Origin: a virus
Strand: one strand, 5' to 3'
Length of the DNA: 64,000 nucleotides
IMG/VR virus record: IMGVR_UViG_3300045988_168437
Each line of letters starts with the position of its first letter. Within the stretch, counting starts at the first letter, position 1. Shown here one piece after another: positions 1,890 through 19,560 of the stretch. Below the pieces are notes generated by a model. The model did not search any database. It had not been told where the DNA came from and was given only the letters and a program-made list of their open reading frames with translations. A program made the translations under genes and the position numbers.

Positions 1890-2057
1890 ATGAGAACTTA
1901 CTTAGCAGATTATGAAGACGATAATTTTGAAACAATAATAGCGAATACAGATAATGAAGCTTACTTTGAAGCTCTTGACCATGAAGAAGAACATGGGACT
2001 TTATATAATCTTTTTGAAATTGATGATGACTACAATAAAATAAGAGAAGTTAAATAG
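1890..2057 (+). CDS. hypothetical small acidic protein (55 aa)
   Basis: ATG 1890, SD GGGAGG 1877-1882; MRTYLADYEDDNFETIIANTDNEAYFEALDHEEEHGTLYNLFEIDDDYNKIREVK*; stop TAG 2055-2057. Confidence 0.5.
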   Translation: MRTYLADYEDDNFETIIANTDNEAYFEALDHEEEHGTLYNLFEIDDDYNKIREVK

Positions 2058-2135
2058 AAGGCAAAATTCGAAACCGTGGTGGTCCACGGTCTGTAAGCAA
2101 TAGGCTACTTATACTGACGAGATAGCCTTGCCAAC
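2057..2135 (+). ncRNA. type II hammerhead self-cleaving ribozyme (HH-2)
   Basis: GAAA 2070-2073; stem III 2073-2079/2084-2090; GUC 2089-2091 (cleavage after C2091); stem I 2092-2097/2108-2113; CUGACGA 2114-2120; G2121-C2069; loop I 2102-2107 pairs with 2123-2128 (AGGCUA/UAGCCU versus AAGCUA/UAGCUU in HH-1). Confidence 0.85.
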
Positions 2136-3352: not shown

Positions 3353-4150
3353 ATGACAAAGATGTTAAAAAATAGTTACTGGAATCATACAGGAAAATAT
3401 CAAAATGAAAGTGAAGAATTAGAAAAATTAATACCTCACTGGGGTAGAACTACTAACCCTTATATGAACTTATTCATAGTTGCAAGTCAATTATACTATG
3501 ATGTTTATAACAATGGTGGTTGTAATATCGAGGATTGTTATGTTGATGATATTGAAAAATATATAAAACCTTATGCAAAGGAATTAGAAGGAATTAATTT
3601 TAAATGTTCATTAAGAACAATAGTTAATAATCTTATGAACGAAGAAAAATTAGAAAATTTCTTAAATTCCGTTATGGAATTTATTTCTGACAAAGACTTG
3701 TCTTATCGTAAATATTTAGCTTATTTTGATAGTAACAATCACCTTCTTTCTTATGATAAAAAAGAGGGTTATTATGAAATAAGTTTTGGTGAAAAAGAAG
3801 AATTTGAAAGATGGATAAACAACAGAAAAAATTCTGGGTATAAATTAATAGGAGGTATAGTGATGAAATATAGAGTTTGGTGGATACCGCAAATAGGTTA
3901 TGATGGTACTTTTTATGTACCTGTAAATTCTCCAGAAGAAGGACTAAAAATAATGTCAGTATTAGGTGCATATGATTTATTTCAATTAAAGAATAATATT
4001 AAACCAGACTTTTCAAATACAGGTGGCTTAGAAGTCTTTGAAGACGGAGAATGGGTAGATTACTATGATGAAGACGGCAGAGATATAGATGAACATTTTG
4101 AAGAAGATGTGAATATGCAAGATTTTATAGAAAAAGTTTATAATTTTTAG
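3353..4150 (+). CDS. hypothetical protein, possibly two fused modules
   Basis: 265-aa ORF; strong in-frame internal SD AGGAGG 3850-3855 plus ATG 3863 (MKYRVWWIPQ...). Confidence 0.6.
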   Translation: MTKMLKNSYWNHTGKYQNESEELEKLIPHWGRTTNPYMNLFIVASQLYYDVYNNGGCNIEDCYVDDIEKYIKPYAKELEGINFKCSLRTIVNNLMNEEKLENFLNSVMEFISDKDLSYRKYLAYFDSNNHLLSYDKKEGYYEISFGEKEEFERWINNRKNSGYKLIGGIVMKYRVWWIPQIGYDGTFYVPVNSPEEGLKIMSVLGAYDLFQLKNNIKPDFSNTGGLEVFEDGEWVDYYDEDGRDIDEHFEEDVNMQDFIEKVYNF

Positions 4151-18217: not shown

Positions 18218-18304
18218 ATGAGAATGACAAGTAGAAGATTCAATAATATAGTTAAGAAAATGATTAAGGAGTTGATAGAAGATGATACTTGCAAAGAAAG
18301 TTAG
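18218..18304 (+). CDS. possible 28-aa basic peptide overlapping the tnpB start
   Basis: ATG 18218 after SD aaaggggg; MRMTSRRFNNIVKKMIKELIEDDTCKES*. Confidence 0.25.
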   Translation: MRMTSRRFNNIVKKMIKELIEDDTCKES

Positions 18305-19397
18305 ATTGCGCCCAAGTGAACTACAAGAAGAAAAATTATGGAAATCAGTAGGGACTGCAAGATTTATTTATAATTGGACTTTAAATAGGCAAGAAGAAAA
18401 TTATAAAGGTGGTGGTAAATTCATACCTGATAGTGTTCTTAGAAAAGAAATAACTCAATTAAAGAAAACTGACTTAAGTTGGTTAAATGAAGTATCTAAT
18501 AATGTTGCAAAACAAGCTGTAAAAGATGCCTGTGATTCATATAAAAGATTCTTTAAAGGATTGTCAGGTAAACCTAGATTTAAAAGTAGGAAAAGAAGTA
18601 AGAAGTCTTTTTATCATGACAATGTTAAACTTAAAGTTAAAGATAATAAATTAGTTAAGATTGAAAAAGTTGGGTGGATAAAAACCAATGAACAATTACC
18701 TATTGGAGTTAAATATACCAATCCGAGAATTAGTTATGATAATAAGTATTGGTATTTATCTGTAGGAATTGAACAGGAAGGAATCCAAGAAGAATTAACA
18801 GAAATATCATTAGGAATAGATTTAGGGTTGAAAAACTTAGCAATTTGTTCCGATGGTGCAATATATAAAAATATAAATAAAACTTGTACAGTCAAAAAAA
18901 TCGAAAAGAAACTAAAAAGATTACAAAGACAAATAAGTAGAAAGTATGAAAAAAATAAAAAAGGAAAGGAGTATGTCAAAACTAAAAATATTATAAAACT
19001 TGAAAAGCAGATACAACAAGTACATAGAAGGTTGACTAACATTAGAAATAACTATCTTCATCAAACTACGACAAGTATAGTGAAAACCAAACCATACAGA
19101 GTTGTAATAGAAGATTTAAGTGTTTCTAATATGATGAAAAATAAACATTTATCTGATGCTATAAGGAAACAAGGATTCTATGAATTCAGAAGACAACTTG
19201 AATACAAGTGTAAATTTAGAGGAATTAAGTTAGTCGTAGCAGATAGATTTTATCCATCGTCAAAAATTTGTAGCCAATGTGGAGAGATTAAGAAGGATTT
19301 AAAGCTATCCGATAGAGTATACAAGTGTGATTGTGGGCTTGTGATTGATAGAGATTTAAATGCAAGTATTAATCTTTCTAAATATAAATTAGCATAA
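18282..19397 (+). CDS. tnpB: TnpB (IS200/IS605-family OrfB, RNA-guided nuclease)
   Basis: KKVRLRPSELQEEKLWKSVGTARFIYNWTL N-terminus; RuvC triad candidates GIDLGLKNLA, VIEDLSVSNM, DRDLNASINL; zinc ribbon CSQCGE...YKCDCG. Confidence 0.85.
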   Translation: MILAKKVRLRPSELQEEKLWKSVGTARFIYNWTLNRQEENYKGGGKFIPDSVLRKEITQLKKTDLSWLNEVSNNVAKQAVKDACDSYKRFFKGLSGKPRFKSRKRSKKSFYHDNVKLKVKDNKLVKIEKVGWIKTNEQLPIGVKYTNPRISYDNKYWYLSVGIEQEGIQEELTEISLGIDLGLKNLAICSDGAIYKNINKTCTVKKIEKKLKRLQRQISRKYEKNKKGKEYVKTKNIIKLEKQIQQVHRRLTNIRNNYLHQTTTSIVKTKPYRVVIEDLSVSNMMKNKHLSDAIRKQGFYEFRRQLEYKCKFRGIKLVVADRFYPSSKICSQCGEIKKDLKLSDRVYKCDCGLVIDRDLNASINLSKYKLA

Positions 19398-19560
19398 TAT
19401 CATTAATAAGATAATGCTAATATGTAGGATGTGTTGTATCCGAATTTACGCCCTTGGAGAGTTATATCAAACGAAAGTAGGTTGTTATTTATAATTTCCA
19501 AAATCGAATTCGTAGAACAGGGAATTAAACAAGATTTATAGATATTTATAGATTTTTGGC
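19280..19560 (+). ncRNA. candidate omega/reRNA scaffold of TnpB (boundaries not determined)
   Basis: By analogy with characterised TnpB loci, the guide RNA overlaps the 3' end of tnpB and the right end. Hairpins are visible at 19390-19420 and 19494-19527. No right-end boundary could be fixed by eye. Confidence 0.3.

Follow-up and report, generated by a model that had tools for sequence, protein, structure and literature searches.

The stretch of DNA analyzed here (the window) comprises 64,000 nucleotides (nt) of one strand of the IMG/VR virus record IMGVR_UViG_3300045988_168437. Its first 2.6 kb carry small genes without a family match and ribozymes between them, and all sizeable open reading frames (ORFs) within 1-58 kb lie on the + strand. 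In the gap between an ORF of 55 codons (ORF55) and one of 116 codons (ORF116), an earlier note based on the letters alone had placed HH-2, described as a type II hammerhead built like a first copy, HH-1. When HH-2 (window 2060-2132, + strand) was read from the sequence, a complete set of type II hammerhead elements was found, as listed below; R1 is a covariance model described in the next section.

2060-2064/2128-2132, + strand: distal closing helix GGCAA/UUGCC, which extends stem II; 5 base pairs (bp), checked by script
2067-2069, + strand: UUC, with C11.1 at 2069
2068-2073, + strand: 5' strand of proximal stem II and core, with U2068, C11.1 at 2069 and G12, A13, A14 and A15.1 at 2070-2073 (GAAA); from Rfam and R1 alignments
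2073-2079/2084-2090, + strand: stem III hairpin with loop UGGU at 2080-2083; an A-U pair plus six more pairs, 7 bp
2091/2092, + strand: predicted cleavage site between C17 (2091) and U1.1 (2092), GUC triplet; from the hammerhead consensus
2092-2097/2108-2113, + strand: stem I hairpin UGUAAG/CUUAUA, 6 bp with one G-U (2093-2112)
2098-2107, + strand: loop I, CAAUAGGCUA
2114-2120, + strand: core C3 to A9, CUGACGA; from pattern search and covariance model alignments
2121-2122, + strand: 3' strand of proximal stem II, G10.1 at 2121 and A2122
2102-2107/2123-2128, + strand: pseudoknot of AGGCUA in loop I with UAGCCU in the 3' tail, 5-6 bp

The full hammerhead core is present in HH-2, with CUGACGA, GAAA, the pair A2073-U2090 (A15.1-U16.1), C2091 at H17 and the pair G2121-C2069 (G10.1-C11.1). 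Stem II has 2 bp (2068-2069 with 2121-2122) and is open, and stems I and III each end in a loop. All seven pairs of stem III were canonical in a script check, and the helix is present in the minimum free energy (MFE) fold. The pseudoknot of at least 4 bp directly 3' of stem II by which type II is recognized was found as well; its isolated duplex was calculated at -7.9 kcal/mol, and U2128 is assignable either to its strand or to the distal helix.

Reading and script agreed with the earlier note on stem III and its UGGU loop, on the cleavage position and on the G-U pair in stem I. The core identity it had claimed for HH-1 and HH-2 was also borne out, as CTGACGAG and TTCGAAAC occur on the + strand at these two sites alone. 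The pseudoknot and the closing helix are two contacts beyond its description. Its placement of the ribozyme start on the G of the upstream stop codon was right about the adjacency and wrong about the exact nucleotide, since the outermost helix begins at G2060, 3 nt past the stop, and the minimal ribozyme at U2068, not at G2057. Stem III was also considered as a terminator and rejected, as no U run follows it and the terminator scan was negative there. The strand opposite HH-2 holds just one 39-codon ORF with a TTG start and noise-level Rfam matches.

How often such a motif arises by chance was determined with a descriptor for type II hammerheads in general, which contains no sub-lineage-specific feature. 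It asks for C-GAAA, a stem III with four or more pairs that include A15.1-U16.1, a non-G at H17, a stem I with four or more pairs, and CUGANGA-G. On both strands of the window it matched two sites only, at 210 (HH-1) and 2069 (HH-2). The mean over 200 dinucleotide-preserving shuffles was 0.01 matches, with one match in 2 of the 200 and two matches in none.

Covariation and weight of the assignment

A search of IMG/VR with a pattern derived from HH-1 and HH-2, TTCGAAAC-N25-55-CTGAYGAGATAG, returned at least 80 loci, and 68 of 73 distinct sequences among the matches listed parse as canonical type II hammerheads. These 68 members (the broad family) were placed in an N-padded structural alignment that keeps its columns in MAFFT; for pair counts it replaced the MAFFT alignment A1, in which half of the rows were shifted by one column near the GUC. 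The hammerhead fold with its pseudoknot was paired in 93.6% of cells, compared with 62% after shuffling, where none of 500 trials reached the observed value, and 32-39% when the partner strand was slid. Changes on both sides were found in 16 of 21 pairs, with covariation in the pseudoknot as well as in stems I and III. Stems I and III had been used in parsing the members and the pseudoknot had not; its columns were 83.8% paired, with both-side changes in five of six pairs. Position 17 is C in 65 members and U in the other three.

Closer relatives of the window were available for a second alignment. One of them, L017, is a syntenic 138-kb IMG/VR contig with hammerheads at 366, 768, 1718, 2099 and 3691 and twisters at 1195, 2759 and 3410. 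When metagenomes were scanned for a pattern taken from the leader downstream of HH-2, 11 matches were obtained, six of them true relatives (L086, L087, L088, L089, L093 and L095); the other five (L085, L090, L091, L092 and L094) were GC-rich chance matches and were discarded. Across 20 distinct hammerheads from the window's relatives (the phage group), the whole structure was 92.9% paired, with both-side changes in 19 of 29 pairs. The distal closing helix was 85% paired with both-side changes in all nine pairs, its register having been picked for each row from six options, which slightly favors pairing. The closing helix is therefore a real feature of the phage group, and with its 5 bp it is weakest in HH-2. 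Its enrichment in the broad family was modest (mean best helix 5.1 versus 4.5 nt; 7 bp or more in 12 of 68 members versus 6.7% of controls), and it marks sub-lineages, not the family as a whole.

The positional orthologues of HH-2, which follow the same 55-codon ORF in L086, L088, L089 and L095, keep the core and the pseudoknot and have other stems. Stem III is CCGUGG/CCACGG in the window and L086, AAGAGC/GCUCUU in L088 and L089, and AGGGAC/GUCCUU in L095. Stem I is UGUAAG/CUUAUA, UAUGGG/CUUAUA or UACGGG/CCCGUA, and the closing helix is AGGCAA/UUGCCU or AUAGUCUA/UAGACUAU.

Eight of the 20 phage-group hammerheads, including most positional orthologues of HH-2, have an extra U between A9 and G10.1 (CUGAUGA-U-GAUAG). 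This core is found in L017 at 1718-1815 and 3691-3789 and in L088, L089, L093 and L095; HH-2 itself has the canonical core, without the extra U. Because the variant is kept in copies with differing stems, it is probably tolerated or functional.

Several results weigh against HH-2 as an active ribozyme, beginning with the covariance models, on which the earlier note had relied as a check. The outcome there was mixed. The Rfam hammerhead models did not report HH-2 in scans of 64 kb or 3 kb, whether by gathering threshold or by E-value. In a 111-nt scan Hammerhead_II (RF02276) aligned end to end with 2066-2131 at 28.8 bits (E 1.7e-4), below its gathering score of 37, which is an annotation criterion and not a biological one. 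HH-1 gave no Rfam match, the narrow scan included. The model R1, built on alignment A1 from 51 viral-contig homologues with the window and L017 excluded, gave 60.4 bits for HH-2 (E 3e-12) and 54.5 bits for HH-1 and had no other match in the 64 kb; about 20 of its 81 positions were preset by the search pattern, so that the 60 bits partly reflect retrieval. Because R1 recovers HH-2 in this way, we read the sub-threshold Rfam score as a limit of the Rfam seed, and the independent evidence for HH-2 is its structure rather than the R1 score.

The other unfavorable points concern the fold and the distribution of the ribozymes. Stem I of HH-2 is weak, being A/U-rich with one G-U, and the nested MFE fold (-25.1 kcal/mol) forms the pseudoknot helix in place of stem I; the active nested fold reaches -17.3 kcal/mol with the pseudoknot not yet counted. 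Taken on its own, the 5-bp distal helix is no better than chance. According to Perreault et al. (PMC3088659), changes near stem II or the pseudoknot can cut activity strongly, and the activity of the particular geometry of HH-2 would thus not be guaranteed. Moreover, a protein-level search with ORF 313-840 yielded only relatives with 35% identity, on three IMG/VR contigs of 133-140 kb (L081-L083) that have no hammerhead within 5 kb of the gene, and a Rfam scan of L082 gave no match at all, twister included. Ribozymes are therefore dispensable for such genes and accessory to some lineages.

The sub-threshold Rfam score and the weak stem I and distal helix are what an inactive, chance or decayed hammerhead-like sequence would show. 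Such a sequence would hardly combine an intact core with a descriptor expectation of 0.01 per window, compensatory changes in both orthologues and paralogues, and a second copy plus two twisters in neighboring gaps, and we consider this explanation exceedingly improbable. The motif, its excess over chance, its covarying conservation and its genomic setting were observed directly. Because the core is intact, the helices covary among homologues, the orthologues keep the fold with other stems and the setting is that of typical phage hammerheads and twisters, HH-2 is very likely a working type II hammerhead ribozyme, stabilized by its pseudoknot, within the polycistronic mRNA that is made from + strand early genes of an uncultivated large phage similar to those of Bacillota. 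The class and the HH-1-like architecture proposed in the earlier note agree with all four lines of evidence. HH-2 is an ordinary but well-supported member of a family known since 2011, in which every structural feature of the class is present and only the Rfam score threshold was missed.

Operon setting, downstream leader and upstream stop codon

The neighboring features of HH-2 in the window are the following.

196-291, + strand: HH-1, paralogue of HH-2 and likewise a type II hammerhead; long stem III, pseudoknot of 8 bp, distal helix of 7 bp
858-912, + strand: twister-P1-like ribozyme 1; Rfam twister-P1 34.4 bits (gathering 67.2), E 5.4e-5
1503-1562, + strand: twister-P1-like ribozyme 2; Rfam twister-P1 46.6 bits (gathering 67.2), E 1.6e-8
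1890-2057, + strand: ORF55, stop TAG at 2055-2057; GGAGG 8 nt before ATG 1890
2162-2240, + strand: conserved leader with hairpin 1 at about 2166-2192 and hairpin 2 formed by GGGAGAGGG (2208-2216) and CCCUCUCC (2220-2227)
2251-2613, + strand: ORF116 with its ribosome-binding site (RBS) AGGAG at 2251-2255, ATG at 2263 and the stop ending at 2613; no family match
2621-2650, + strand: intrinsic-terminator-like hairpin and T run at the operon end, from the terminator scan
2684-2712, + strand: promoter-like site, TTGCAA, 17 nt, TG-n-TATAAT

ORF55 has no PHROG or Pfam match; its stop codon and its length of 55 codons are as the earlier note gave them if translation starts at ATG 1890, and it has 57 codons from ATG 1884. 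ORF116 is absent at the corresponding place in L017, L089 and L093. Further along the window, phage replication genes encode a DnaE-type polymerase, NrdD, a RecJ-like exonuclease, a DnaB-like helicase and a primase. The polymerase shares 35-38% identity with its counterparts in large Bacillota phages (e.g. Geobacillus virus E3 and phiCD211). Comparison of the ribozyme region with cultured phages gave nothing by megablast and trivial matches only by blastn, and a genome-collection scan with the sub-lineage pattern found one unrelated gut metagenome-assembled genome contig only.

Ribozymes are found in nearly every intergenic gap of the operon. The contig L087 is 99.4% identical to the window and reaches 5.2 kb further upstream, and with it included the array comprises seven hammerheads and three twisters in about 7.5 kb. 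Hammerheads in arrays were often seen on the viral contigs retrieved, e.g. about eight copies in L001 and six in L076. HH-2 thus lies in the setting typical of type II, namely on the sense strand, between phage genes, in multiple copies and together with twisters. Not every junction of the array bears a ribozyme: the gap at 1293-1339, between the ORFs 978-1292 and 1340-1495, holds a small hairpin (UAGGAGUGUCUCAAACUCCUA) and no recognizable ribozyme, and none was recognizable in the 24-nt gap at 1860-1883.

Other small structures accompany the twisters. Short hairpins at 842-856 and 1486-1502 lie between the upstream stop and the P1 of each twister, and the stop TAA (1493-1495) is within the loop of the second. 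With these hairpins at the stop codons, the twisters, like the hammerheads, therefore begin right at the stop. Just past twister 1 is a hairpin at 926-959 (GCUACU...AGUAGC), for which L017 has a compensatory stem, GUUACC...GGUAAC, at about 2826-2865, with the loop AAAAU(A/G)CUCGUCUA kept.

A TnpB-type gene with OrfB_IS605 and Cas12f1-like TNB domains is located at 18282-19397, and a RAGATH-18 RNA follows 54 nt later at 19451-19524. This RNA (67.6 bits) is the sole above-threshold Rfam match in the window. The pairing of TnpB with a guide RNA derived from RAGATH-18 has already been described (PMC11061315).

Downstream of HH-2, the earlier note had described about 125 nt of additional structured leader between the cleavage site and the next start codon. 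This length holds from the 3' end of the ribozyme (about 2135) to the start codon at 2263, and the distance from the cleavage site is 171 nt. Structure is indeed predicted there in the form of two hairpins, yet they belong to a separate, nearly invariant element and not to HH-2. This leader of about 80 nt (2162-2240) is nearly identical in L017, L086, L087, L088, L089, L093 and L095, while the stems of the neighboring hammerheads differ. Its fold has a z-score of -3.4, and in L017 hairpin 1 carries one compensatory change (G-C to A-U) and one change from U-G to U-A. The region 2128-2270 gave nothing better than E 0.76 against Rfam, and an exact 20-mer of hairpin 2 was found in L017 alone among the viral contigs.

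The possibility that HH-2 serves to make the 5' end of this leader, as a regulatory RNA or as a translational leader of ORF116, was considered. A hammerhead precedes the leader in all seven contigs that carry it, its end 17-40 nt away, and the leader stays almost unchanged as the hammerhead stems vary. In L017 it runs into a terminator instead of an ORF, which hints at a separate RNA some 200 nt long, and in the predicted fold of the window AUUAUCAU (2198-2205) pairs with the start-codon region. However, ribozymes occupy almost all gaps of the operon, which makes the association unspecific, and the usual partner of the leader is a different hammerhead: one with the AUAGUCUA/UAGACUAU closing helix precedes it in L086, L088, L089, L093 and L017, whereas the HH-2 orthologue in L086, L088 and L089 is directly followed by an RBS and another gene. 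The leader also has almost no sequence variation from which its predicted structure could draw support, and it belongs to no known family. What lies 3' of it changes as well, from ORF116 (window, L086, L087 and L095) to another gene (L089 and L093) or the terminator (L017). A dedicated role of HH-2 in leader maturation is therefore quite improbable in our view. The leader is an element separate from HH-2, perhaps a small RNA or a leader with a regulatory role, and HH-2 was joined to it through cassette loss in the window and independently in L095.

On the upstream side, packing against the stop codon is general in the broad family. Among the matches listed with a same-strand ORF, the upstream stop is 0-1 nt from the UUC in 30 of 61 members and at most 5 nt away in 46; it is TAA in 50 of the 61. 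A downstream start codon lies 16-44 nt past GAUAG in 32 of 54 listed cases. Because half of the family in effect abuts the stop (the 30 of 61 above), stop adjacency is generic, and a ribozyme that starts at the stop codon is the family rule, with modules fitted between a stop and the next RBS. HH-2 is spaced more loosely than most, with 9 nt from the stop to the UUC, 2 nt to the closing helix and 10 nt to U2068.

A ribosome at a stop codon covers about 12-15 nt downstream. On ORF55 a terminating ribosome would cover about 2058-2070 and would briefly block the formation of stem II. The earlier note took termination and ribozyme folding to be physically coupled. By occluding or melting the 5' strand (distal helix, stem II and G12), translation termination might thus gate cleavage, as the closeness of TAG 2055-2057 to the distal helix and U2068 and a footprint spanning 2060-2069 would allow. 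The systematic adjacency of stop and UUC in the family fits this idea, as does the phage group, where the stop lies a few nt ahead of the distal helix or overlaps it. Tight packing explains the adjacency equally well, however, since the downstream RBS is equally near the 3' tail; the conserved AA before the UUC is present with or without a role in the stop codon, and the spacing in HH-2 is among the loosest. Furthermore, a hammerhead need fold only once, between ribosome passages or ahead of the first ribosome. We consider gating by translation quite improbable, and the packing of compact modules accounts for the same arrangement.

Cassette differences and proposed role of HH-2

Pairwise comparison showed that the relatives are 92-99% identical in their shared parts and differ by whole cassettes whose junctions fall at ribozymes. 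The segment 917-1530 of the window is missing in L086, L089 and L093, with the crossover inside the 3' half that twisters 1 and 2 share. The HH-2 orthologue is separated from the leader by no extra ORF-plus-ribozyme unit in the window and L095, by one in L086 and L088, and by two in L089. HH-1 and HH-2 have 23 identical nt in common, and the best sequence match to HH-2 in L017 (366-449) lies in another gap than the positional orthologue (3691-3789). Ribozymes thus travel along with the cassettes, and the pattern suggests, without proving it, that ribozyme repeats promote cassette turnover.

These observations are the evidence for a reading at the DNA level, in which the ribozyme repeats mark or promote the gain and loss of single-gene cassettes by homologous recombination and RNA cleavage is secondary or insulates new joins. 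On the other hand, dispersed repeats of any kind yield such junctions, and the junctions and related contigs are few, some of them probably of common ancestry. The junction between HH-2 and the leader falls just 3' of the ribozyme, in the region 2136-2160, and not inside it. Strong covariation together with an invariant catalytic core argues for selection on the RNA and not merely on DNA homology. As the main explanation of HH-2, a DNA-level cassette boundary is possible but somewhat unlikely. A combination of both levels is conceivable, in which ribozymes delimit exchangeable cassettes (RBS, ORF, stop and ribozyme), insulating cistrons as RNA and providing homology for reshuffling among related phages as DNA; we propose this tentatively and judge it a little less likely still. 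If it were true, phage early regions would contain cassette arrays of an integron-like kind whose units are bounded by ribozymes, and the stop placed against the ribozyme would be part of a compact module design.

The most likely role of HH-2 would be the cutting of the transcript into single-gene RNAs. In this scheme self-cleavage would fall between C2091 and U2092. It would release the ORF55 mRNA as the upstream product, whose 3' end, a 2',3'-cyclic phosphate on the stem III hairpin, would lie 34 nt past the stop; with that much sequence left after the stop codon, the upstream mRNA could still terminate translation normally. On the downstream side the RNA would start at the stem I hairpin, with a 5'-OH, and continue into the leader and ORF116. 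About ten hammerheads and twisters would in this manner divide the polycistronic transcript into single-gene RNAs with stability and translation independent of their neighbors. Judging from its topology, no permutation other than type II would place an intact hairpin right at each of the two new ends (stem III for the 3' end and stem I for the 5' end), which suits the making of separately stable cistrons. We infer that HH-2 cleaves in vivo and that this affects expression.

The locus is a compact natural case for the long-open question of clustered self-cleaving ribozymes in phage operons. With about ten ribozymes in 7.5 kb, packing from stop to RBS and near-identical relatives that differ by cassettes, it offers a test system for the uncoupling of cistrons, and the same relatives could show whether ribozyme repeats drive cassette turnover. 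The results further indicate that standard Rfam thresholds miss a large A/U-rich type II sub-lineage (at least 80 IMG/VR loci by exact pattern) and its accompanying twisters. The value of the locus lies less in the motif itself than in the dense, delimited array, the closing-helix variant, the extra-U cores of the orthologues and the cassette junctions.

Comparison with known systems

The glmS ribozyme is ligand-dependent and located in a 5' untranslated region, and in Bacillus RNase J1 degrades its 5'-OH product. It is a precedent for ribozyme cleavage inside a bacterial mRNA that changes the fate of the downstream RNA through a 5'-OH end. HH-2 differs in showing no sign of a ligand site and in that its downstream product would begin in a hairpin.

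An extra nucleotide between A9 and G10.1 is reportedly found in the hammerhead of the chrysanthemum chlorotic mottle viroid, described by De la Pena and Flores in 2001. The extra U in eight of the 20 phage-group hammerheads is at the equivalent place, whereas HH-2 is canonical.

The gene neighborhoods of hammerheads and twisters are said to have led to the RAGATH motifs, in work by Roth in 2014 and Weinberg in 2015. As in those neighborhoods and in clustered prophage hammerheads, ribozymes of the present locus occupy almost all gaps between small genes, hammerheads and twisters are mixed, and a RAGATH-18 RNA lies in the same window. A triple hammerhead arrangement around ardA is described for an Agrobacterium tumefaciens prophage by Perreault et al. 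(PMC3088659). Compared with such clusters, the phage array is distinguished by its high density, about ten ribozymes in 7.5 kb, and by cassette gain and loss with junctions at ribozymes, a point not found in the portions of the literature on clustered hammerheads that were compared. For clustered bacterial and phage hammerheads, the processing of polycistronic transcripts is the usual proposal and is still unproven (PMC6765202).

Three type II hammerheads of Desulfovibrio vulgaris cleave in vivo, as determined by cyPhyRNA-seq (PMC8782182). HH-2 belongs to the same class and likewise lies near phage-like genes; it differs in organism and sequence sub-lineage.

The closest comparison is with the type II hammerheads themselves (Perreault et al., 2011, PMC3088659; RF02276). 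According to that paper, the class is defined by the tertiary contact that its pseudoknot makes between loop I and the 3' tail; mutation and compensation showed this contact to be needed for fast cleavage, and type II hammerheads that have it, found in multiples around prophage genes, cleave in vitro and in vivo. HH-2 shares with them the permutation, the core, the 2-bp stem II, the pseudoknot and the intergenic place in phage or prophage DNA in multiple copies. The closing helix outside the pseudoknot strand has no counterpart in the Rfam model, and a description of it was not found in the passages of the 2011 paper that were compared. Relative to RF02276, HH-2 falls into an A/U-rich sub-lineage marked by UUCGAAAC and CUGAYGAGAUAG; it scores 28.8 bits where the model asks for 37, and its phage group adds a covarying closing helix to the known architecture.

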